From: Planctomycetota bacterium
GTDB taxonomy: Bacteria > Planctomycetota > UBA8108 > SXIK01
Direction: 5' to 3'
Length of the DNA: 64,000 bases
Assembly: GCA_965223265.1 (NCBI GenBank)
Contig: OZ244999.1
Coordinates: forward strand, 3,104,001-3,168,000
Part shown: one piece after another, positions 45,186-63,737 of the stretch
How positions within the stretch are numbered: position 1 is the stretch's first letter
Layout of the letters: each line of letters opens with the position of its first letter
The notes under the pieces: model-generated
What the model was told of the DNA's origin: nothing
Databases searched by the model: none
The model's input: only the letters and a program-made list of their open reading frames with translations
Program-made: the position numbers and the translations under genes

Positions 45186-47750
45186 TTAGTGATTGAAGAG
45201 AAACTCCTTGGTGTTCACGAGCGCCCAGATGATGTCCTCGAAAGCCTCTCGCGGTTTCTCAGTCTTTTCGAGGTGGGTCAAGGCAACTTTCGTCTCATCG
45301 CCTGTCGGAGCACGAGAGTAGACCCAATAGTAGAGATCCTCGACACGCTTCTCGACAGGCCTCTCGGTCTCCTTCGCGAAGGAGGCTGCACGGCCTGCGT
45401 CGGCCGTCAACATATCGTGGATTTCCTTCGAGTTGAGGAGATGGAGGCTCTGCGCCAGACTTGCGTCCTGTGAACGTTCGCACTCACACGAACTGTCGCC
45501 CTTCGGCTTGCCGAACACTTTCAGAAAGTAGTTGTCGACGCCGGCGTCCGGCAACTGAAGTGCTCGCGTCCCCGCCGGCAGGCCGGCAAACGTTCTCTTG
45601 TTGTCCGTTACCTGGTGCAGGGCGTCGTAGAGGACTTCCGCTTTCAGGCGCTGTGGGTAGTACCGCGAGTAGTTCTGTTTGTCCTTTTGGTTGTGCTCGT
45701 TCGGGAGCGCGCTCAACTGATAGGTACGTGACCGAGTGATGGTCCGCACCAGTTCCTTGAGGTCGAAGCCACTTTCGATGAATTGGCTCGCGAGAGCATC
45801 CAGCAGCTTTGGGTGAGATGCTGGATTGGTGAGCCGCAGATCGTCTTCTGGCTCGACAAGGCCACGGCCGAAGAAGTGCTTCCAGTAGCGATTGACGAGG
45901 GCGCGAGCAAAGAATGGATTGTCCTCGGAACCCATCCAACTCGCGAGTTCTTGGCGCGGGTCACGATCGGCTGCGATCTGGAGAGCCGTTCCTCCCAGTC
46001 CCGCCGGTCGCAGCTTCTCGCCCGAACGTGGATTGGTTGCGGTTGCAATACCACGCTTATGATAGATCCGCGGCTCATGGCGCGCCGAGACGCCGCGCCG
46101 CCCGTCTTTCTGGCCGACTTGGGAGAAGAACGCCGCGAAGCTGTAGTAATCCTTCTGGCTCCAGATCTCGAACGGATGGTGGTGACAGCGGGCGCATTGA
46201 ATGCGAAGCCCGAGAAAGAGCTGGGCCGTGTCCTCGACGCGCTGCTCTTGAGTCCGCACCGACTTGAACCAGGTGACGGGCGGATGGCGGACGACGTCAC
46301 CGCTGGCAGCAACGATCTCGCGCACGAACTGGTCGTATGGCTTGTTTGCCAAGAGGGCTGCGCGGATCCAGCCGTAGAACGCATAGGTGGCGCGGAGTTC
46401 TTGGTCGTTGAACTTTTTGTTGCGTAGCACTGCGCTCCACTTGTTGGCGAAGTTGTCCGCGTAGTCGGTGCTGGCGACGAGTCGTTCGATGAGCGCCTTC
46501 CGCTTGTCGGAGGACGTGTCAGCCAAGAATTCGCGCGCTTCGGGAGCCGTCGGCAACCGGCCGGCGATATCGACGGAAACGCGACGCAGAAATGCCTCGT
46601 CAGTCGCCAAGTCGGACGGTGGGATTCCGAGCGTCTCAAGCTTGGCGAAAATGTGTTCGTCGATGAAATTGTTCGCGGGCGGTAGTTCGACCGGCGCGCC
46701 GAGTGGGACGCTGGCACGGAAGACGCCGACGTTGCCTTGATAGCGCACCATGACAGCAACGACACCCGGCAACGTTCTCGTCTCGACGAGACCATTGGCA
46801 TCCACTTCAGCCATCTCGGTGTCGTTCGATTCGTACTGCGCCATGCGCGTGACATCTTCCATCGTGCCGTCGCTGTAGTGCGCCAAGACACTCAGCTGTT
46901 GCGGCTGATTCTTTTCCATCGTCCGCTCGGTGGGAAAGACTTCGATGCCGACCACCGTCGGGTCGTCGGCTGAGCCGTAGGGCATGCCCTGGCGCATCCA
47001 GCGACGCAGGAGTCGATACTCGTGCGACTCGCGTGTGATCCGCTCGCCGCCGCCGTGCGGCGCTTCGTTGGTCGCTTTGCGCAGAAGCAGGCTGTGCTCG
47101 GGAGAGAGCGGCGACACACGTCGCCCGCGAGACTCGTGGACGAGAAACTCGTAGTCCTCGTCGGGATAGAAGCCGAGCAGCGACAGACGAAAACCGTTCT
47201 GTCCGCCGGATTTGCCGTGGCAGCCGCCACCGTTGCAGCCGTACTTCGTAAAGATCGGGACGATCTGATTTGGAAAGTTCGTTGGCACCTCGGTGTCAAA
47301 CGCGACGACCTCAACTTCCAGCTCGGAGCGAAGGGCGTCCGTCTTTTCCTGCTCAAGAAGAGCGATGACGCTGGTCTTACCGTTGGCGAGAGGCGTGACG
47401 TAGCCGCTGTCGCTCACCTCGACGATGGCTTCCGGCGAGGTCGCGTAGGTGACGAGGTGCGAGATATCAGTCTTGGCTCCGTCTGCACCGATGCCAGTGG
47501 CGACCAGCTGGCGACGAGCGTCCCGTCCGCGCAGAAGGTGGCCATTCCTTGGCGCCAGTTCGATCGAAATCAAGTCGCTTGGAAGGGAGAGTCGGACGGC
47601 TTCGCTGGTCTCAGATTCCGGCTTGGCGTTCACAGCCGTGAACGCCAAAACGGCCACGAACAGGGTCGCCATCGGGACCGCGTTGACGACTGGGCGCCTA
47701 GTTTTGGGCTCAACACGAACGGAGTTTATAGACCGTGCCTCGGGCATCAT
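45186..47750 (-). CDS. DUF1549/DUF1553 (PSD1) protein with Ig-like domains
   Basis: GCNGGGCHGKSGGQNGFRLSL, FLRR, CARCHHHPF, VNRYW, CECER, KEFLFNH. Confidence 0.93.
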   Translation of the reverse strand: MMPEARSINSVRVEPKTRRPVVNAVPMATLFVAVLAFTAVNAKPESETSEAVRLSLPSDLISIELAPRNGHLLRGRDARRQLVATGIGADGAKTDISHLVTYATSPEAIVEVSDSGYVTPLANGKTSVIALLEQEKTDALRSELEVEVVAFDTEVPTNFPNQIVPIFTKYGCNGGGCHGKSGGQNGFRLSLLGFYPDEDYEFLVHESRGRRVSPLSPEHSLLLRKATNEAPHGGGERITRESHEYRLLRRWMRQGMPYGSADDPTVVGIEVFPTERTMEKNQPQQLSVLAHYSDGTMEDVTRMAQYESNDTEMAEVDANGLVETRTLPGVVAVMVRYQGNVGVFRASVPLGAPVELPPANNFIDEHIFAKLETLGIPPSDLATDEAFLRRVSVDIAGRLPTAPEAREFLADTSSDKRKALIERLVASTDYADNFANKWSAVLRNKKFNDQELRATYAFYGWIRAALLANKPYDQFVREIVAASGDVVRHPPVTWFKSVRTQEQRVEDTAQLFLGLRIQCARCHHHPFEIWSQKDYYSFAAFFSQVGQKDGRRGVSARHEPRIYHKRGIATATNPRSGEKLRPAGLGGTALQIAADRDPRQELASWMGSEDNPFFARALVNRYWKHFFGRGLVEPEDDLRLTNPASHPKLLDALASQFIESGFDLKELVRTITRSRTYQLSALPNEHNQKDKQNYSRYYPQRLKAEVLYDALHQVTDNKRTFAGLPAGTRALQLPDAGVDNYFLKVFGKPKGDSSCECERSQDASLAQSLHLLNSKEIHDMLTADAGRAASFAKETERPVEKRVEDLYYWVYSRAPTGDETKVALTHLEKTEKPREAFEDIIWALVNTKEFLFNH

Positions 47751-48109
47751 GCACTTTCTCCCGCGTCGGACGTCGTAACGTATCGAACAATCACAGTTTA
47801 GCGTATCGCGACGTGACGATAACACGGATCCGGCTGGACGCGCAAGAACTTTGGGCGGGCGTAAGCGTCTCTCGGGCGTGCATCGCCGGTCGCTGGCGCT
47901 GCGCTGGGACCGCTGCCAGCCGCCGTCCGCATCGGTTGTCGATGTGGGCCGCGTGTGGTCTGTCGATTCAGCGCTTGGCTTGAGGTTCCCGACAGAGTGC
48001 GCGTTTGGGATACGAACGCAAGGACCGCTTTACATTCTTGAGCCTCCTCAACCTGTTGTGTCGCTTTGTAAATGTTTTTGTTTTAATGGTTTGAAGATCT
48101 TGTGCGGGA

Positions 48110-48197: not shown

Positions 48198-50672
48198 ATG
48201 AGTCCCGACCGCACACGGTTCGGTATGCGAGCTTGTTCCTCAGCGCCGCGTCTGTTGGCGCTGGATCCGTTGGTCCTGGCCCTTTCGGTTCTTGGGACCA
48301 TGACTTGGGTGTTGTTTCACGGCCCGTCGCTCGCTGCCGGCGAGGCTGTTGACGCCCGGGCGGCGCCGCTGCCGGCGATCGTTTTCGCTGAGCGCGATAC
48401 GATCGCCGCCGACCCCAGCGGCGTCATCACACGGTCGCGCCGAGGGCGTCTGGCCATTCGGGAGCCGGCCCGCGGCGACGTCCGCTATCTTGTCAGTAAC
48501 AGTGCCGGGGTCGGCTCGACTCCGGTCGACGTTACCGATCCCGACGTTTCATACGATGCCGAGCGCGTACTGTTTTCCGGCTATTCGCCCCGTGAACGCG
48601 CGTGGCGCATTTACGAGGTCCGCGTTGATGGCTCCGAGTTGCGTCAGATCACGACATCGGACGGCGACGAATTCAACGTCACGCTCCTCGGTGTCGGCAA
48701 CGCAGCGCTGCAGAGCTTTGACGATCTGGACCCTTGTTACTTGCCCGACGGACGAATCTGCTTTGTGTCGACGCGCTACCCGGCCTTGATTCCGAGTCAG
48801 CGCCAACGCGCAACGAACTTATTCGTCGTCAACCCCGATGGCTCGGATCTTCACCGCATCACCACCGAGCGTTTTGGAGCTGACACTCCGGCGGTCGATC
48901 CGATCAGCGGCAAGATTGTCTACTCGCGTTGGTGGCATTCGTTGCCACTCTCGTCAGTTGCGACCGGCACGACGACGACGGTCACCGACTCGATCCCTCC
49001 CGGCGGCTACTACAACACCGGGCCGCCACCACCACCGCCGCCAAGCGCTCTCTCGGGGGTTACCGAGTCGGCCTTCAGCGGGGTCAACAACTGGTTCCTC
49101 TCCGAGATCAACCCTGACGGTGAGGGATTGCGCATGTTCAGTGGCTTTCGGCTCGACCGACAGGCCTCACAAGCGTGGAAGCCTAGCTTTTTTGAGGACG
49201 GTACGGCCCTCTCGCTCTTTTTGCCCGAGCTTCCGAAGTTCGGCACTCCCGGGCGCAAGGGACTGCGGAAGGTCGAACCCGGCGCCACCGCGCCCGAAGA
49301 GCTTGCCGGCGTGCAGACGTTTCAGGGCGACGCAATTTCCGATTTCGAATACGCGAGCGCGGTGCCACTCGCCGACGGCCGAATCCTGGTAACAGGACGC
49401 TTCTCCAATGACCAGAGCGCGAATCTCTACATTCAGAGCGATCGACGTGCGCTGCCGTCCTTCCTGACAGGACAGCGCAGTTTCGCTGAGATCGATGCCG
49501 TGCCGGTCGTAACGCGCGATACGCCACCCGTGATTGTCGATGAGCTCGAGGATCGTCTAGCCGTGACTTCCGCGCTCGACGTCGAATCCGCCTACGAGCG
49601 TGGCACGTTCAAGTTCGTCGTCGAGAATCTGCATTTCAACGCTCCGGTCGACGTCGACATGCCGCATGCGCCGCCTGTCGGCTTTGGGCTGGCCATCGAG
49701 TTTTACATGGCTCCCCCGCAGGGCGACAGCGCCTCACCGAAGCCGATTCTGATCGAGCGCCGCGACGTCCCGGCCTCCGGCAGAGTTGAGGTGGAGCTCC
49801 CAGCCGGCGTGCCTCTCTTTGAGGTGCTGCGGCGGCCCAACGGCGAGATCGCCAGGGGGCGCGACGGTCAGGTCTATCATGTCGGTGGCATGAATTACGG
49901 TCGTGTGGGGACGCGATCCACGTGCGTCGGTTGCCATATGGGACATTCCATGATGGAGATGCCCGCGGATCCGGAGTGGACCAACTTAGCGACGAGCGCA
50001 GAGCTTGGGCTCCGCTCTCAGGAGAAACTTGTCGACCGCTCCACCGCGGAGGGTAGCACGGCGAGCGCCGGGACTGCATCGCTTGAGTGGCAGGAGCCAA
50101 TCTACGCTCGCGAAGTGGTTCTCTACGCGCCGCGGCCCGGGCCGCTCAACGAGCAGCGCATTTCCGCGGTGATTCTGCGCGCCTGGGATGGAACGCGGCG
50201 CACGGCGATGCTCGATCTGGAGCAAACCATCTCGCCCGAGGGGAGCAGGTTCGAGCTTGCGGCGAGTGACGGCGAACGCGTCCGTCTCGATCGTTTGGAA
50301 GTGATCGTTCCTGACGGCGGTGTTGAAGGAACATACCATGGGCGGGAGAGTCCGGTACTCGCTGAGATCGAGGTGATCGCGCGGGCAACAGGAACGGCGC
50401 GCTTTCGCCGCAGCGATACCAATTGCGATTCGGTCACGGACCTCTCGGATGCGGTGGCGACGCTCACGATGCTATTCGCTGGAAGCGACGACGTTTGTTG
50501 CCTTGAGGCGGCGGACTTCGACGCTGATGAGCGCGTCGATCTCGGCGACGCCGTGGCGCTGCTCAACCATCTCGTCAAAGGTGGACGAGAACCCGCCGAT
50601 CCGTTCGAATCCTGTGGCACCGTCACGAACACCGGTCGCCTCGGCTGCGAGGAGTCCAGGTGCCGTTCATGA
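48198..50672 (+). CDS. Hydrazine synthase alpha-like protein (TolB-like propeller, HzsA middle domain with CxxCH, discoidin-like domain, dockerin-like tail)
   Basis: DPDVSYDAERVLFS, DLDPCYLPDGRICFVSTR, PAGVPLF, CVGCH, FRRSDTNCDSVTDLSD...AADFDADERVDLGD. Confidence 0.82.
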   Translation: MSPDRTRFGMRACSSAPRLLALDPLVLALSVLGTMTWVLFHGPSLAAGEAVDARAAPLPAIVFAERDTIAADPSGVITRSRRGRLAIREPARGDVRYLVSNSAGVGSTPVDVTDPDVSYDAERVLFSGYSPRERAWRIYEVRVDGSELRQITTSDGDEFNVTLLGVGNAALQSFDDLDPCYLPDGRICFVSTRYPALIPSQRQRATNLFVVNPDGSDLHRITTERFGADTPAVDPISGKIVYSRWWHSLPLSSVATGTTTTVTDSIPPGGYYNTGPPPPPPPSALSGVTESAFSGVNNWFLSEINPDGEGLRMFSGFRLDRQASQAWKPSFFEDGTALSLFLPELPKFGTPGRKGLRKVEPGATAPEELAGVQTFQGDAISDFEYASAVPLADGRILVTGRFSNDQSANLYIQSDRRALPSFLTGQRSFAEIDAVPVVTRDTPPVIVDELEDRLAVTSALDVESAYERGTFKFVVENLHFNAPVDVDMPHAPPVGFGLAIEFYMAPPQGDSASPKPILIERRDVPASGRVEVELPAGVPLFEVLRRPNGEIARGRDGQVYHVGGMNYGRVGTRSTCVGCHMGHSMMEMPADPEWTNLATSAELGLRSQEKLVDRSTAEGSTASAGTASLEWQEPIYAREVVLYAPRPGPLNEQRISAVILRAWDGTRRTAMLDLEQTISPEGSRFELAASDGERVRLDRLEVIVPDGGVEGTYHGRESPVLAEIEVIARATGTARFRRSDTNCDSVTDLSDAVATLTMLFAGSDDVCCLEAADFDADERVDLGDAVALLNHLVKGGREPADPFESCGTVTNTGRLGCEESRCRS

Positions 50673-50942: not shown

Positions 50943-51082
50943 CTAGCAGCCCCGGCCTCTTCACGCCCAGCTCAGCCGCGGCGAGCCTCGATCATCCCGA
51001 AGATTACCTACGTTCGCCGCGGCCGATCTGGACGCGAAACGACCAGTTTTCAGCTCGAAGCACTTTTTCAACGGGCTGCTAG
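50943..51082. mobile_element. MITE-like palindromic element, copy B (one arm internally deleted)
   Basis: CTAG-CAGCCC ... ACTTTTTCAACGGGCTG-CTAG; the right CTAG supplies the DUF1501 stop codon. Confidence 0.78.
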
Positions 51083-52560
51083 GCAAGGATTTTGTTGACC
51101 ACGTTACCGCCTACATCCGTGAGGCGAAAGTCGCGGCCTTGGAAGCGATACGTCAAGCGTCGGTGGTCGAAACCAAAGAGGTGCAGCAGCGTTGCGTGGA
51201 AGTCATTTACGTGGATTGGATCGTCGACGACGTTCCAGCCGATCGGGTCCGTGCGGCCGATCACTTGGCCGCCTTTGACGCCGCCACCAGCCATCCACAT
51301 CGAGTAGGCGAACGGGTGGTGGTCACGTCCCGTGTTGTACTTCCGTGAGCCTCGGTTCTCCCCAAGGGGCGTGCGGCCGAACTCCGAACCCCACACGACC
51401 AGAGTGTCATCCAAGAGTCCGCGTGTCTTGAGGTCGCGCAGAAGGGCGGCGATCGGTTGGTCCGCCATCGTCGCGTTGTAGCGCAGCTCAGGGTCCAGAT
51501 TGCTGTGATGATCCCACGACGCATGATAGACGTTGACGAAACGGACACCGCGCTCGACGAGACGTCTCGCCAGCAGGCAGTTGGTGGCGAACGAGCTGAA
51601 CACCCCCTGGCCGCTGCCGCGACCGCGGAGTTTCGGCTCCGGTCGACCGACGCCGTAATCCTCCAGCGTCCTTTGGCTCTCGTTCGACACGTCTATGAGC
51701 TCTGGTGCCGACGACTGCATGCGGAAAGCCAGTTCGTACGAGGCGATGCGGCTCGAGATTTCTGGATCCTGGACGGTCGAGAATCGCTGCCCGTTGAGTG
51801 CCCTAAGTGTGTCGAGACTCCGCCGCTGCACGTCGCGATCAACGCCCTTGGGATTGCCGAGGTTGAGAACCGGATCGCCTTGATTCCGAAACAGTACACC
51901 TGCGTAGGTCGAGGGCATAAAGCCGCTCGTCCAATTGGATGCGCCGCCACTAGTACCGCGACCGGCAGTGAGGACGACGTATCCCGGGAGATTCTCAGAC
52001 TCAGAGCCTAGCCCGTAATTGAGCCACGAGCCGATGCTCGGAAGGCCGAAGCGCGGCACCCCGGTGTTCATCATCAACTGCCCGGGATGATGATTGAACG
52101 CGTCGGTGTGCATGGAGCGGATCAAACAGATGTCGTCGGCGCACGAACCGAGATGGGGCAGCAGATCGGAAAGCTCCATGCCACAGCGACCGTGACGCTG
52201 GAATGTCCGCTTCGTCCCCAAGAGGGTCGCAGTCTCTTTCTGGATGAACGCGAAGCGCACATCTTTCGTCATCGACTCCGGTAGCTGTTTTCCGTGCAGT
52301 CGGTTCAGCTCGGGCTTTGGATCGAAGAGATCTAACTGGCTTGGCGCGCCCGCCATGAAAATGAAGATGCAATTCTTCGCGGTGCCAGCGAAATGGCCGG
52401 CTCGCGGTGCCAGGGGGTCTGTTCGTCCGGCGGGGTCGTTTGCTGCAAGGAGCCCGTCACGCGCTAGGAGTGAGGCCATCGCGACGGTGCCGATGCCGCT
52501 AGCCGACGTGGCGAGAAAACTTCTTCGAGTTGTGTCTACGACGCGTTCGCACGATTCCAT
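51079..52560 (-). CDS. DUF1501-domain protein (Tat signal)
   Basis: TRRSFL, FMAGAPSQLDLFDPKP, LLARRLVERGVRFV, WDHH, EFGRTP, GRDHHP. Confidence 0.95.
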   Translation of the reverse strand: MESCERVVDTTRRSFLATSASGIGTVAMASLLARDGLLAANDPAGRTDPLAPRAGHFAGTAKNCIFIFMAGAPSQLDLFDPKPELNRLHGKQLPESMTKDVRFAFIQKETATLLGTKRTFQRHGRCGMELSDLLPHLGSCADDICLIRSMHTDAFNHHPGQLMMNTGVPRFGLPSIGSWLNYGLGSESENLPGYVVLTAGRGTSGGASNWTSGFMPSTYAGVLFRNQGDPVLNLGNPKGVDRDVQRRSLDTLRALNGQRFSTVQDPEISSRIASYELAFRMQSSAPELIDVSNESQRTLEDYGVGRPEPKLRGRGSGQGVFSSFATNCLLARRLVERGVRFVNVYHASWDHHSNLDPELRYNATMADQPIAALLRDLKTRGLLDDTLVVWGSEFGRTPLGENRGSRKYNTGRDHHPFAYSMWMAGGGVKGGQVIGRTDPIGWNVVDDPIHVNDFHATLLHLFGFDHRRLTYRFQGRDFRLTDVGGNVVNKILA

Positions 52561-52618: not shown

Positions 52619-54892
52619 TCACTCGCCCGAGTCCAGGTGGAATTGCGGCGCTCCGGCGAAGCCGGGCGTCTCGCCTTCGACGACATCTAAGATCTGGTCG
52701 GCGGGAAGGTCACGTAGGAGTTGAGTGTGTCCCGACGGCCAGTGGATCTCCACTTCGTCCACTTGCGCGGCCGTGCCCAACCCATAGTGCAAAGTTCGGC
52801 TTTGACACGAAAGATAGGCGCCGCCGCAGAGTACACTGCGCCACTGATTTGTCCCGGCTGCTTGAACTCGAACTCGCGCGCCGATGGCGTCGCCATGACT
52901 GCGAGTGCCCCGCAGCCGAAGCTGAAGCCAGTGACCTGTGGCGCCACGGCTGATGAGAATCGACGCAGGTTGTGCGTAGTTTTGGATCACGAAATCGAGG
53001 TCGCCGTCGTTGTCGAGGTCGGCGATAGCCAAACCGCGTGCGTCCTCGATGCGGTCAGCAGCGTTGACCCCAGCGACGTCAACGAGTTGGCCACCGTCGT
53101 TACGAAAGAGAGCATTGTTTTCGTAACCGTTGAAGGATTTGTCGCCGACGTGAATGAACGAGCTGACATCGCCGTCAACTATAGAACGCCGACCGACGTT
53201 CTCCAGAAAAGTCGGTCACAAATCATGACGGTCTTTCCCCGAAATGAAGCCGTTAGTTGCGTAGAGATCGAGGTCGCCGTCGTTGTCGTAGTCTAGAAAG
53301 CCAGCGCTCCAGCTCCAGCCGGTATTGTCCGTCCCAGCCGCACTCGCCACGAACGTCCCGTCGCCTTGGTTGCGGTAGAAAACGTTGCCGGACATCATCT
53401 CGTAGACGATGTCGAGGACGTCATTCCGAAACAGCATCGAGACTGGCCAAGGTGCCGGCGCCGGGTATGCGCGCTGGCGAATCATCCAGCGTGAGTTAGA
53501 GGTCATGGCCGCGACGAAGAGGTCTGGATAGCCGTCGTTGTCGAAGTCACCCCACGAAGCGCTCATGCTAGCGCGTCGGGCGGTCAACCCAGCCTCTCGA
53601 GTCACGTCGTCGAACGTGCCGTCGCCGCGATTTCGATAAAGCACATCGAAGCCGAAATCGTTGGCGACGAAGAGATCCACGTCACCGTCGACGTCGAAGT
53701 CCGCCGCCGAGCATGCGAGGCCGAAGCCGGAGTGATCAACGGAGGCCGCAGCTGCAGTCTCGCGAAATGTTCCGTCCGCGTTGCCCATAAAGAGCGCGTT
53801 GGGTGCGGCGTTGAGCGCCTGGTGAGGCGGATCGGGCGAGCACAGAGTCAGATTACAGCCGTTGACGATGAAAATGTCGAGGAATCCGTCGGCGTCGAAG
53901 TCTGCGCTGCAGACGCTCGTTGTGTGGCGTGTTGGGGTTAAGCCGACGTCGGCGGCGACGTCGGTAAAAGTACCGGTTTCGTTTTGGAGATAAAGAATGT
54001 TGGCCCCGTCGAGGCGGCCGACGAAGATGTCTTGGCGGCCATCGTTGTCGAAGTCTGCGATGAGTGCCGATCGCGACTTGCCCGGCAGCAGTGCGTCAAC
54101 GCCGGCCGATTCCGTCGTGTCACGGAACGTGCCGTCTTGCTGATTGAGAAAGAGGCTACAGTGGTCTCCGTTGACGAAGTAAAGGTCGACCCAGCCGTCG
54201 CCGTCGACGTCGCCGACAGCTAGTCCAGACCCCGCGGGGTAACGTTGGAGGCGACCCTGTCGGTCGGCGACGCCGTCGATGGCGGAAAGATTGGAAACGC
54301 CACGTTCGACGGCTTCCTCGGAAAATCGCACCTGGTCTTGAGCCACGATCACTGGCGTCGAGGCGTGCTCGGAGACGATTTTCCATTCGCCCGTCGTGTC
54401 GCGTCTGCAGACGACCGCCAGCGAACTCTCCTGGCACACGTCCCTTCGATCCTTACCCGTCCCACAAAGGCTGAACGAAAGTGTGGCGTGGGCTTCGCCA
54501 TGCCGAATCAGAAGTTCGTCGATCGTCGCTGCCACGCGGCGGACCACTTGAAACTTCTCCAGCAAGGCGCGTTTGCTCTCCTGCCACTCCTGCGTGTCAG
54601 CGAGCTCTTTCGTGTAGAGGCTGCTAATGCCCTCGAGGTCCCGCCGGGCGTGTTCTTGGGGGTAACGACGGTGCAGTAGCTCGTTTAAGGGGTTTACGTA
54701 GTCTCGTTTCGTTCTTTCCCACGAACCACACCCCGCCATGAGAAGAGCGAGGGTGGCGCCGAGCAAAAGTGTTGGCAGTCCGTGCTGCGGCTGAGGTCGA
54801 GCACACCGCGAGGGACTTGAAGCGAAGGGAAGCGAATCGATCACGAAACGAATCGGATGCGGCCTCAACAACGAAGAGCGTTCATCTCCCAT
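52619..54892 (-). CDS. CRTAC1-family FG-GAP/ASPIC-UnbV lipoprotein with one in-frame UGA (probable selenocysteine)
   Basis: ORFs 53216-54910 and 52619-53032 are in the same frame, and the 61 codons between them are open. Lipobox MAGC, NTF2-like domain, DxDxDG repeats, AIGARV..GGAYLS..LHYGLG..WPSG. Start uncertain. Confidence 0.85.
53179..53206 (-). promoter_or_regulatory. Bacterial SECIS-like stem-loop
   Basis: CUG-G-AGAACGUC-[GGUC]-GGCGUUCU-A-UAG; 21 nt separate the UGA (53216-53218) from the G-leading apical loop. Confidence 0.7.
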
Positions 54893-55149
54893 CACGAGAT
54901 GGGGGTTCAAGACGATCCGATTCTAACGCGCAATCTTCGTGAGTCCACTCATTGGAGCGCGAGACGTGAACTCTGCTGTCGACTGCGTCGGGACGCGCAT
55001 GAACTTTTTCGGATGATCTTCAGCTCGGTCTTTCGGAACATGGACGCAGTGAAGGGACATCCGGACAGTCACTGACGCCAGTGCCTCCCGTTGGGGAGCC
55101 GAGATGCCGTCGCTCGTTCCGTTGCCTTTCGAGGGGGGACACCACGCAG

Positions 55150-59933: not shown

Positions 59934-62900
59934 ATGAGATACGGGGCACCAGTACGCTTGCGTTTAGCGGTTGCCGCGTGTTTGCTTTGCGCGGTCTTGC
60001 CGATCTCGGTGAGGTCGCAGCTTGCAGCAGGGGAGGTGTATTTCGTCAGCGATGACGCTTACTACCTGATTTGGGCGGTGGACGCAGAGACGGGCGCGGC
60101 GGTGCAGGGACTGAGCGCCCCCGACGATGCGATCCTCGGAGTTTCTCCGCCGCCGAGCTCTGGCCTCGCCTTCGCTGCAGGAGAACTCTACTACACCCAT
60201 GACGCCACCCCGCTTCTATGGGTCTTGGACGCTGAGTCCGGTGATGTGGTGCGCTCGTTTGAGAAACCTGCGACAGACATTTCCGGTCTGACGTTTGCTC
60301 ATGGCGTTCTCTACGCTGCAGCGGAGATCGATTCACAAGGAACTCTCTATGGGCTGGACCCAATCACTGGCGTCGTTCAGTCGACGCTTGCGGTGCCACG
60401 GGCCAGCGGTGCACTTGCGGCGTCGGAGGCGCGTGGGTCGGTCTTTGTGCGCGTCGGTGCACTCGAGGTGCGTGAGATCTCGGCGGCGAACGGCGACGTG
60501 CTCGGTTCGATCGTACCGCCTGTCCCAACGACAGGACTTGCAGTTTCTGAAGACGAAGCGCGGCAGTCGCTCTTGTTTCTCAATGCGTCCGGCGAACTGA
60601 CGACTTACGACCTGTTGGCGGGCACAACGACAGATCCGATGGAGCTCGTCGAGACGGCCGGCAACCGCCTCGTGCGCACCGGAGGGTTGGCGACTGGCAC
60701 GTTGCCGCCACCGACCGAAGGTGGCGAAGGTGGTGGTGTTCCAGTCTCTGGCGCAGCGATTGAGGTTCAAGACACGAACGTTCGCGCCGACCGCACTGCA
60801 TCCGTTCCCATATTGATGACCAATGATCAGGCGCTTCAGGGCTACGTTATTGCTGCCGTGCACGACCCTGCTGTCTTGACGTTGGAGGATGTTTCCTTTG
60901 CGGGCACAGAGACTGAAGCGAATTTTGCCGAGTTCGTTGCAGCTGAGTTGCTCCCCAATGGAGCGACGATCGGCGTGATTTTCGACGTTGACGCTCCCTT
61001 CGAGAACAACGTGCTTCCGCCCGGTGTGGATCAGGTGGTCGCGCGGCTCGCTTACAGCTGCGTCAACCGCGACCCGACGGAGGAAACAAGCACCGAAGTG
61101 CGTCTGGTCGATGGGGTGATTGGTCAACCGGCTAAGGACAATCTGATTGTCGTCGATGGTGTCACTTCGACGCCGGAGTTGTTTCCGGGAACGATTCTGT
61201 GCGTTCTACCTCCGCCACCGTCCACCGAACCGCAGTTCCTTTGCGGCGGACCTCCGGCAGCGGATGGCCTCCCGACGCCGTTGACGGCTGGGCGAGGAGA
61301 AACTGACACGCTCTGCTTTTTCTACGCTTTTCCCAGTGACCGTCCGGCTGGCATTCAGGGACTCTCGATGGCGCTTGCCTACGACTGCCGCCTCGACTGC
61401 TTGGAAGAGACGTTTGGACTTGTGCCTGGCGGAATTGCGGACGTGATCGGTACCGAGTTCGTTGAGTTTCAATGCGATGAAGATCCGACCGATGGAGACG
61501 GCTGCGAAATGATTCTCGCGATGCTCCTCGACTCATCGCCGCCGTTCGACGGACAGACTCTGCCTCCGACATCTATGCCGTTTCCACTCGCCTGTGTGGA
61601 CTTGCGCGTGACGCCTGAAGCCACTGTGGGTGAGTGCCTCGACGTGCGTTTTCAGGACGGAGTGAACGGCGAAAACAAGGTGCCAACGAAAAACCTCGTC
61701 TCCGTCAAGAATGAGGCGATCGCAGCGCTGACGAGCTCCTGTGAAGTGTGCGTTGTGCCGAGCGGCCCGACGCTCTTTTGCGGCTCTGGGGCGCTGGACG
61801 TTCATGGCTTGCCTGGTCCTCTCGTGGGTGAGAACGGCGACGAGGTCGAACTCTTTTTCTGGTACCGTTCTCCGGTGGAGGAAGTGTTTAGTTTGACGCA
61901 AGCGGTGCGGATCGATTGTCGTGCTGCGTGTATCGCTGACACGTTTCTGGCCGACCCAGGCCTGCAGGGGGTCGTGAACCGAGGTGACCTCTCACTCGAG
62001 TGCGATTCGGATCCAGCGGATGGCGACGGATGCGAAATCGTCTTGCGTTTCGAGCGAACCGCAGGCAACCCGTCTCTTCCTGCCACTGACCTTCCAGTTC
62101 GATTAGGACGCGTGCGACTGCGCATCGGAGAGAACATCGCGCGCGGCAAGTGCTTGCCGATTGAGCATCACGACCAGATCGACGGAGAGGGTACGGAGAT
62201 CGTCGACAATCAAGTGATTACACCGTCCGGGATTCTGTCACCGGAGACGGTCGATTGTGAGATCTGCGTGCGCCCTGCACCGCTACCGCGGTTCTTTTGC
62301 GGCGGACCAAACCTCGATCCAGAAACCGGGCTCCCCGAGATTCCATCCGAGGTGCGACTCGGGGAGAGTGTTGAGTTTTCTCTTTGGTATTCGAGTCCCG
62401 ACGACGAGCTTGACATCACAGACCAGATTCAAGGGCTCTCGATGGCAATTCAGTACGATTGCAACCTGATTTGCCAAGAAGATACGTTCACTATCCCTCC
62501 CGACAGCGCGCTCGAGCTTGTCGATGCGGAGTTCGTCTCGTTCGAGTGCGAAAATGATCCGACCGATGGCGACGGGTGCGAAATGCTCTTTGCCGTCTTA
62601 GTCGATCTGAACCCGCCGTTCGATGGTCGCACGCTGCCGCAGAGCGACACACCGCTCAAGCTGGCGTCCGTGACGATGCAGGTAGGGCCCGGCGCGGTAC
62701 TTGGCACGTGCCTTCCGGTGCGCTTTCTCGATGGCGTCGACGGCAAAGGGATTGTTCCCAACAAGAACATTGTTTCGCTGAACAATGAAGGCGTCAGCCC
62801 CGAGACCTTCGATTGCGAAGTTTGCGTCCGGCCCCTCGGACCAACGTTTTTCTGTGGCCCGGAGGATTTCGCCCCGGACGGAATCATCGACCCAGCGCCA

Positions 62901-63737
62901 GGCGACGCCGTGCCTCTCTGTTTCTTCTATTCGTCGCCGACCGACGAGCTGTTTACCGCAATTCAGGGCTTTTCCATGGGCCTTACGTTTGATTGCCGAC
63001 TCACATGTCTTCCAGACACGTTCCGGCTCCCCGAAGACTCGATCCTTTTGGCCCTCGGCGCTGATTTCGTCGACTTTCAGTGCGACAACGATCCAGACGA
63101 TGGTGACGGCTGTGAGATGATCTTTGGCGTGTTGATGGACGCTACGCCACCGTTCGATGGTCAAACCTTGCCGCCAACGGATATCCCGCTCAAACTCGCC
63201 TGCGTCGACATGGTCATCCCGACCGATGCGGTCTGTTTCGAGTGCTTCGACGTCAATTTCGAGGACGGAGTCAACGGCAACAACAAGGTGCCGATCAAGA
63301 ATCAGATCGCCGTGGACAATATGGCATTCTTTGCCCGCACCCAAGACTGCGAGATTTGTGTCGACATGATCGTCGAAGAGAAGACCTTTGTCCGTGGCGA
63401 TTGCAACGGCTCGGCTGGATCCGAGGAAGAACCGGTCAACATTGCCGATGCTGCCAGCGTCGTGTCGCTTCTCTTTGGACTCGACGAATTGAAGCCAGAG
63501 CCAGTTTGCCTCGACGCCTGTGATGCCAACGACGATGGCCGTCTCGAGCTCACCGACACGCTTGCGATTCTTCTCTTTCTTTTCAACGACGGAACGCCAC
63601 CGCCGCCGCCGGGTCCCCACACAGCCGGCTTTGACCCGACGAAGGATGTCATCCCGTGCGGGGACCGGCTGTGTCCGACCGATGGAGACGATGAAACCGC
63701 GGACGGAGCTTCAGGCGAAGGCTCGCCTACTGGTTAG
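59934..63737 (+). CDS. Secreted scaffoldin-like protein: beta-propeller, five cohesin-like domains, dockerin-like domain
   Basis: Signal peptide; propeller repeats; cohesin-like domain ~60756-61205; four ~170-aa Cys-rich repeats; C-terminal FVRGDCNG...CLDACDANDDG. Confidence 0.85.
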   Translation: MRYGAPVRLRLAVAACLLCAVLPISVRSQLAAGEVYFVSDDAYYLIWAVDAETGAAVQGLSAPDDAILGVSPPPSSGLAFAAGELYYTHDATPLLWVLDAESGDVVRSFEKPATDISGLTFAHGVLYAAAEIDSQGTLYGLDPITGVVQSTLAVPRASGALAASEARGSVFVRVGALEVREISAANGDVLGSIVPPVPTTGLAVSEDEARQSLLFLNASGELTTYDLLAGTTTDPMELVETAGNRLVRTGGLATGTLPPPTEGGEGGGVPVSGAAIEVQDTNVRADRTASVPILMTNDQALQGYVIAAVHDPAVLTLEDVSFAGTETEANFAEFVAAELLPNGATIGVIFDVDAPFENNVLPPGVDQVVARLAYSCVNRDPTEETSTEVRLVDGVIGQPAKDNLIVVDGVTSTPELFPGTILCVLPPPPSTEPQFLCGGPPAADGLPTPLTAGRGETDTLCFFYAFPSDRPAGIQGLSMALAYDCRLDCLEETFGLVPGGIADVIGTEFVEFQCDEDPTDGDGCEMILAMLLDSSPPFDGQTLPPTSMPFPLACVDLRVTPEATVGECLDVRFQDGVNGENKVPTKNLVSVKNEAIAALTSSCEVCVVPSGPTLFCGSGALDVHGLPGPLVGENGDEVELFFWYRSPVEEVFSLTQAVRIDCRAACIADTFLADPGLQGVVNRGDLSLECDSDPADGDGCEIVLRFERTAGNPSLPATDLPVRLGRVRLRIGENIARGKCLPIEHHDQIDGEGTEIVDNQVITPSGILSPETVDCEICVRPAPLPRFFCGGPNLDPETGLPEIPSEVRLGESVEFSLWYSSPDDELDITDQIQGLSMAIQYDCNLICQEDTFTIPPDSALELVDAEFVSFECENDPTDGDGCEMLFAVLVDLNPPFDGRTLPQSDTPLKLASVTMQVGPGAVLGTCLPVRFLDGVDGKGIVPNKNIVSLNNEGVSPETFDCEVCVRPLGPTFFCGPEDFAPDGIIDPAPGDAVPLCFFYSSPTDELFTAIQGFSMGLTFDCRLTCLPDTFRLPEDSILLALGADFVDFQCDNDPDDGDGCEMIFGVLMDATPPFDGQTLPPTDIPLKLACVDMVIPTDAVCFECFDVNFEDGVNGNNKVPIKNQIAVDNMAFFARTQDCEICVDMIVEEKTFVRGDCNGSAGSEEEPVNIADAASVVSLLFGLDELKPEPVCLDACDANDDGRLELTDTLAILLFLFNDGTPPPPPGPHTAGFDPTKDVIPCGDRLCPTDGDDETADGASGEGSPTG

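Follow-up and report, generated by a model that had tools for sequence, protein, structure and literature searches.

How should a gene be read when its conserved protein-coding frame is crossed by a single stop codon? The question is raised by a locus in a 64,000-nucleotide stretch of a Planctomycetota bacterium genome (GenBank assembly GCA_965223265.1, contig OZ244999.1, positions 3,104,001 to 3,168,000; hereafter the window), in which two open reading frames (ORFs) of one minus-strand frame lie on either side of a TGA codon. Our analysis suggests that this is very probably a single gene for a 763-residue exported CRTAC1/FG-GAP plus UnbV_ASPIC lipoprotein, in which UGA565 would be read as selenocysteine (Sec) and would provide a selenolate acting as redox nucleophile. 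Recoding of UGA565 by SelB and a selenocysteine insertion sequence (SECIS) is demonstrated by comparative evidence. The original prediction of a selenoprotein, made from the letters of the window, is supported by the presence of sel genes, by a TGA conserved at one column, and by a covarying hairpin.

The reading frame (positions 52619-54910) comprises 564 codons, TGA 53216-53218, a further 198 codons, and a terminal TGA at 52619-52621. Apart from TGA 53216-53218, its translation contained no internal stops and no frameshifts. This agrees with the original prediction that the two ORFs form one frame with no other lesion, and the residues directly after the TGA (PTFLENVGRRS...KSFNGYENNALFRN...) read as it had quoted them. 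The read-through protein matched FG-GAP_3 (PF13517; E 2.4e-51, 172.6 bits, six stretches) and FG-GAP (PF01839; E 3.3e-20, 72 bits), both above cut-off. Within the propeller, the second-to-last FG-GAP repeat has a DLYATNG strand, and the UGA falls in the long loop behind it. The UnbV_ASPIC match (Table 1) lies entirely downstream of the TGA and can be reached only through read-through. Toward the N-terminus, a lipobox-like pattern precedes an alpha+beta domain for which the Pfam scan gave no match. Cys61 is presumed to be the lipidated first residue of the mature protein, and it is by this pattern that we read the product as a lipoprotein. Among orthologs with a complete 5' end, the cysteine (Cys) is followed by x-[ST N]-W-[ED A] in 8/8. 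NCBIfam offered no family for the read-through protein.

To place the TGA in a wider context, we used the read-through protein as query against 61 related genomes. In 24 of these genomes it found matches at E<=1e-60, 68 in total (36-55% identity; up to six family copies per genome), and every one (68/68) contained exactly one TGA. We read 66 sites, namely 61 of the 68 matches and five from two Acidobacteriota records and one Planctomycetia record. In all 66, the TGA stands at one and the same column (hereafter the Sec column). It is preceded by NG[FWY]x[ST]...D[L/C/T/F/Q], and the conserved protein sequence continues in frame from the very next codon. Gene models point to the same place: in close relatives, 68-74% identical where aligned, the predicted proteins all end at ...DRxDL, the residue preceding the TGA, and two database proteins of 198-201 residues begin just past it. 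Homologs thus carry TGA where the original prediction expected it, together with a conserved, covarying hairpin. In the Acidobacteriota records L029:4087-7128 and L031:4638-7485, two FG-GAP/ASPIC genes are adjacent to each other, and every gene has its own Sec-column TGA and a GCGC/GUGC-GGUC-GCAC/GCGC hairpin.

The hairpin in the window has a stem of eight pairs, one of them G-U, and a loop that begins 21 nucleotides (nt) past the UGA, so that the 8-base-pair (bp) stem and GGUC loop were found as first described. The SECIS loop of Escherichia coli fdhF contains GGUC. Hairpins with a GGUC loop occurred 17-24 nt after the UGA in 65 of the 66 sites, and their stems fall into four unrelated sequence contexts: AACGUC-GGUC-GRCGUU in the window's subfamily (protein ENVGRRS), GCGRCA-GGUCG-UGYCGC in the long forms described below (protein FFWRQVVSR), CCGGUGC-GGUC-GCACCGG in the second paralog of this genome and in acidobacterial forms, and CAGUUUC-GGUC-GAAACUG in L110. 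In 19 distinct hairpins with 4-nt loops taken across the subfamilies, compensatory change on both sides was seen in 7/7 stem pairs, 89.5% of cells paired as compared with 27-44% when the partner was slid, and the covariation score was 0.751 as compared with 0.220 for shuffled data (reached by 0/500 shuffles); the sequences are related, and the segments were anchored on GGTC with the best stem taken, which favours pairing. In the long forms (27 distinct hairpins), pairing extends to 100% of cells, with compensatory change in 2/6 pairs (AU, GU, GC, UA). An Rfam scan of positions 52900-53400 at E<=10 returned no match. The sole site of the 66 without a GGUC loop, L111 (G048:C297:8050-9666), has an AGUU loop (GGGCAGC-AGU-UGCUCCC), and may represent a SECIS variant or a copy in decay.

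The sel genes anticipated by the original prediction are all present. The 9.18-Mb genome encodes selA (474 bits), a SelB wing domain (68 bits, in a 699-residue frame), selD (309 bits), and a tRNA-SeC with anticodon tca, the only tca tRNA that aragorn reported. All 24 family-holding genomes (24/24) have selA, a co-occurrence that is uninformative because 58 of the 61 relatives have selA, including families without the gene. The selD match (G000:C1:3460739-3461653, L004) lies in a 790-codon open frame, far longer than plain SelD, and this frame may be a fusion.

As a genome-wide control, all TGA triplets were screened for a GGTC-loop hairpin with a stem of at least 6 bp, 14-24 nt downstream. Only 98 of 268,250 triplets passed, and only three of these 98, namely those in this gene, in its paralog (G000:C1:5755064), and in an FdhA-type gene, have an open stretch of more than 190 codons on either side. 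Given that only three TGAs in the genome combine the hairpin with long open flanks, the hairpin in the window is more than a chance occurrence. The FdhA-type gene (G000:C1:8398989-8401787, L148; 2Fe-2S, 4Fe-4S, and Molybdopterin domains, the last with 259 bits) carries its TGA (G000:C1:8400141) at the canonical CSRA-U-HAPTVAGL, followed by a 7-bp stem with a GGUCU loop 18 nt downstream.

Several other loci of this genome were noted. The paralog is a second Sec-type FG-GAP/UnbV_ASPIC gene (G000:C1:5752505-5755664, L027:2506-5665, plus strand, ~1053 open codons). It has a multi-pass hydrophobic N-terminus, a Sec-column TGA, and CCGGUGC-GGUC-GCACCGG 20 nt downstream, and no thioredoxin domain. 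The genome also holds at least six non-Sec FG-GAP/ASPIC paralogs. One non-Sec paralog match, at G000:C1:3916071-3917582, contains two TAG stops and may be a pseudogene. At G000:C1:3487037-3487717 (L149), a frame of 84 plus 142 codons is divided by a TGA, with a 9-bp stem and a GGUC-type loop 17 nt later. Its downstream part gave WD40-like Pfam matches that are weak and under the family cut-offs, and it is possibly a further Sec candidate or a chance match.

The window protein and its orthologs are 717-763 residues long. This short form (window protein, orthologs L009 and L013) lacks thioredoxin-like and TPR Pfam domains as well as any CxxC, and in a comparison of nine orthologs Cys was invariant at no column other than the lipobox and the Sec column. 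Long relatives are built differently: L017 and L020 carry a thioredoxin-like domain with WSPECSSC plus TPR, and L022 an AhpC-TSA/Redoxin/Thioredoxin domain with WCGNC. A search of this genome with a long-form query found no thioredoxin-fused form. We built a FastTree phylogeny from 104 propeller plus ASPIC rows, with the Sec column left out. The window protein falls in an all-Sec clade (14/14 rows, support 96), the long forms make up a clade of 31 Sec and 2 non-Sec rows, and a third group contains 7 Sec and 3 non-Sec rows. The Sec label requires at least four changes on this unrooted tree, on which gain and loss are indistinguishable. Judged by its sequence, the window thus adds a distinct short lipoprotein subfamily without a thioredoxin tail. 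As its Sec site does not need a fused thioredoxin domain, the short form narrows where the chemistry sits.

An AlphaFold model covering residues 58-763, computed from a 31-row alignment, consists of the alpha+beta N-domain, the propeller, and a beta-sandwich tail (predicted local distance difference test (pLDDT) 89.3, predicted template modelling score (pTM) 0.91). The topology of the N-domain gives the impression, and only that, of being NTF2-like. A strand (model 503-506) is directly followed by a short helix (508-514), which begins with residue 565. A strand followed by a helix is the usual setting of reactive Cys or Sec in thioredoxin-fold and glutathione peroxidase (GPx) sites. The top match in the PDB was murine CRTAC1 (9etn_A; Foldseek E 7.1e-29, template modelling (TM) score 0.72, root-mean-square deviation 3.6 A over 575 columns), which was also matched by sequence (E 5.8e-28, 19% identity). 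The original prediction had set the Sec outside any classical redox fold. This statement has to be qualified by the CxxC thioredoxin fusion of the long relatives and by the position of Sec at a helix start.

We infer a redox role for the selenolate because long Sec forms fuse a CxxC thioredoxin-like domain, because the CxxC is absent in 5/5 long-form-like non-Sec relatives checked (P0085, P0097, P0263, P0266, and P0177), and because the strand-Sec-helix arrangement resembles reactive Cys/Sec sites. In P0085 and P0097, the CxxC motif is replaced by TSPFS or SSNLS. In the mechanism that we propose, the GGUC-loop hairpin, situated within coding sequence 21 nt downstream, would recruit SelB and Sec-tRNA(Sec), as in formate dehydrogenase genes. 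With selenium or SelB limiting, translation would stop at the UGA and yield a 564-residue protein without the last propeller blades and the UnbV_ASPIC domain. The selenolate in the long propeller loop, at the start of a helix, would most likely serve as redox nucleophile on an extracytoplasmic substrate and would be recycled by a thiol-disulfide oxidoreductase. The reductant would be the fused thioredoxin-like CxxC plus TPR part in the long relatives and would act in trans on the short form. Given that the short form keeps Sec without a fused reductant, a trans-acting partner or a different chemistry is needed.

The main functional rival, which we consider unlikely, keeps the Sec but gives it a ligand role: as an anion it would coordinate a metal or another soft electrophile at the face of the propeller, and the protein would work in binding, sensing, or detoxification. 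The residues that non-Sec relatives have at the Sec column bear on this directly. Glu occurs in P0087, P0114, P0263, P0266, and P0265, and Asp in P0177; the nearest non-Sec relatives, with E in P0263, P0266, and P0265 and D in P0177, often carry a residue that would mimic an anionic ligand. A ligand would also suit a calcium-binding propeller and a short form without a partner Cys. However, Ala (P0085) and Gly (P0097, P0067) stand at the column in well-aligned relatives, and the remaining ones have Val, Ile, Leu, Met, Phe, or Trp; Ala, Gly, Val, Leu, Phe, and Trp are unable to ligate a metal. Moreover, the CxxC that is fused in long Sec forms and missing in their non-Sec counterparts points to thiol-selenol chemistry. 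Some columns are specific to Sec forms: Ser471, a candidate partner in the active site, occurs in 52/52 Sec forms compared with 19% of the 52 non-Sec forms, and Gly441, Trp453, Gly508, and Val572 are likewise site candidates.

The same column bears on how Sec came to be there. The original prediction expected Cys or TGA in homologs: the TGA part held at 66/66 sites, and for the Cys part no convincing form was found among the best 150 of 36,978 homolog matches. The few 'C' cells at the column among the matches listed belong to gapped or out-of-register alignments, and the representative search, in which giant multi-repeat proteins prevailed, has little power to reveal Cys forms. It is conceivable, though we hold the idea only tentatively, that Sec arose at a site with unrelated residues in all other relatives examined, replacing no catalytic Cys, and that the propeller is a self-sufficient selenium-dependent catalytic module of the cell envelope. 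We know of no account of a biochemical or catalytic function for CRTAC1. If the proposal is true, a self-sufficient Sec propeller would offer a first biochemical approach to what the ASPIC/UnbV/CRTAC1 family does, and a Sec without Cys precursor would explain why searches based on Cys pairs miss it.

Several points count against a redox-active selenoprotein produced by SECIS-type recoding. No convincing Cys occupies the Sec column in any homolog examined, and in the short form no resolving thiol is visible and no thioredoxin domain is present. The anchoring of the covariation segments, as stated above, favours pairing. The folding energy is unremarkable (z -0.85 over 76 nt, equalled by 39/200 shuffles; z -1.46 over 49 nt), and the minimum-energy fold of the window RNA is a competing hairpin (53191-53218, minus strand), formed by GACCGAC, which overlaps the UGA by its GA, and GUCGGUC, within which the GGUC loop lies. 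L008 and L012 show this competing fold as well, and the orthologs L009-L011 do not. Finally, the model loses confidence here, with pLDDT falling to 73, 57, and 42 across 30 residues from Sec onward.

Could the UGA instead be a conserved, genuine stop? The product would then be a 564-residue truncated propeller, and the downstream part would be untranslated or made separately from a split gene. Existing gene calls look this way: callers split at this point (P0011, P0032, P0041, P0113), and P0217 and P0253 are the two C-terminal pieces. Some termination at UGA is, furthermore, expected in any selenoprotein gene. Calling with translation table 11 likewise gives a 564-residue ORF and a second frame. 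Against a stop, the first ATG, GTG, or TTG of that second frame (53032) comes only 61 codons past the TGA, and termination at the UGA would cut a propeller blade; the distance from TGA to the first start codon differs between homologous sites and decides nothing by itself. A stop is hard to reconcile with protein conservation that resumes at the next codon in 66/66 sites and continues through a Pfam domain, and it would leave the covarying GGUC hairpin, common to FdhA, unexplained. We therefore regard termination as the normal fate of this codon as very improbable.

Slightly less probable still is that translation passes the UGA with a standard amino acid inserted, whether by near-cognate Trp, Cys, or Arg decoding or in a reassigned code. 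The lack of Cys forms among the homologs examined, atypical for selenoproteins, would fit such a reading. However, TGA is an ordinary stop in the window: given that it ends this gene and two other Pfam-supported ORFs, it is not reassigned. Also opposed are a reported tca tRNA set limited to tRNA-SeC, the selA genes of 24/24 family genomes, and a hairpin whose loop and spacing match those of the genome's own FdhA site. A fresh pseudogene or sequencing error, suggested when the lone in-frame stop is viewed in one genome, where it resembles a recent lesion, is refuted, because the same codon stands at the same column in 66/66 homologous sites and contigs from three public runs span it without a single difference, leaving a negligible probability.

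The original prediction had called for the TGA to be confirmed in raw reads. In its favour, the contigs of all three runs (two samples, one study) show no difference across the TGA, with the qualification that all four run holders are contigs of one study, probably from the source sample and not independent, and that X4 has no depth over the TGA. The look-up of sequencing runs listed no RNA holder.

We next compared the family with what has been catalogued. A literature search linking selenoproteins or selenocysteine with FG-GAP, UnbV, ASPIC, CRTAC1, or VCBS returned nothing relevant, and a review of prokaryotic selenoproteomes from 2026 has, in its main text, 0 occurrences of FG-GAP, ASPIC, CRTAC, VCBS, Planctomycet, or propeller. 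The main text of Kim et al. 2016 names only fdhA and fmdB as selenoproteins (PMC4807772). Passages of another paper state that nearly all known selenoproteins have a Cys homolog and that SECIS-independent finders, as well as the homology module of deep-Sep itself, depend on Cys homologs (PMC12013277). Because such tools build on Sec/Cys pairs, they are prone to overlook a family that has no Cys forms, and the absence of this family from catalogues fits the lack of such forms among the homologs examined. If Sec is inserted, the members of a large, multi-copy envelope protein family of Planctomycetota and Acidobacteriota are currently annotated as split or truncated. Selenium chemistry would then also occur extracytoplasmically, on a fold that vertebrates use in the matrix protein CRTAC1.

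The surroundings of the gene include typical planctomycete genes and two large ORFs (Table 1). In a comparison of 1.5-kb flanks, the DUF1501 gene, the 163-residue ORF, and the SDR gene of the window were not found beside the orthologs, and the 824-residue ORF had one weak match, in L012.

Table 1 Features of the window around the proposed selenoprotein gene
Feature	Position	Strand	Basis or remark
Whole read-through frame, 763 residues plus terminal TGA	52619..54910	-	First possible start TTG 54910, first ATG 54892 (end coordinate in the original prediction)
Proposed selenocysteine codon, in-frame TGA, residue 565	53216..53218	-	Translation and homolog comparison
True stop codon, likewise TGA	52619..52621	-	Translation
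Lipobox-like L-M-A-G-C, residues 57-61, closing a hydrophobic stretch	54728..54742	-	Sequence pattern
N-terminal alpha+beta domain, residues ~62-190, helices then curved sheet	54341..54727	-	AlphaFold, pLDDT mostly >90
FG-GAP beta-propeller, residues ~225-655, DxDxDG calcium-type loops	52946..54238	-	Pfam and model
Ser471 codon, matching loop of the neighbouring repeat	53498..53500	-	Column comparison, Sec versus non-Sec forms
UnbV_ASPIC domain, residues 675-741	52688..52888	-	Pfam PF07593, E 1e-19, 70.6 bits, above cut-off
SECIS-like hairpin: 5' arm AGAACGUC 53202-53195, GGUC 53194-53191, 3' arm GGCGUUCU 53190-53183	53183..53202	-	
PSCyt2/PSD1, typical planctomycete gene	45186-47825		
824-residue ORF	48198-50672	+	No Pfam match at E<=1e-4
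DUF1501, typical planctomycete gene	51079-52560		
1267-residue ORF	59934-63737	+	No Pfam match at E<=1e-4

Among known systems, the window gene resembles the SelB/SECIS selenoprotein genes, such as those for the formate dehydrogenase alpha subunit (fdhF), in its in-frame UGA, its coding hairpin with a GGUC(U) loop within about 20 nt, and its accompanying sel genes. Unlike the formate dehydrogenase alpha subunit, its product would be an exported FG-GAP propeller and not a molybdopterin enzyme, and no Cys-form homolog was found. Closer to it are the long-form FG-GAP/UnbV_ASPIC/thioredoxin/TPR proteins, which share the Sec column, the hairpin logic, and the propeller plus UnbV_ASPIC core. The window protein differs from them in belonging to a clade of proteins of 717-763 residues with a lipobox-like pattern and an alpha+beta N-domain and without thioredoxin, CxxC, or TPR, and its hairpin has another stem sequence and lies 21 rather than 17 nt from the UGA. 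Finally, it shares with CRTAC1 (PDB 9etn) and bacterial UnbV/ASPIC proteins an FG-GAP calcium-type propeller followed by UnbV_ASPIC. CRTAC1 has no Sec, and the bacterial protein has in addition a presumed lipid anchor and the N-terminal domain.

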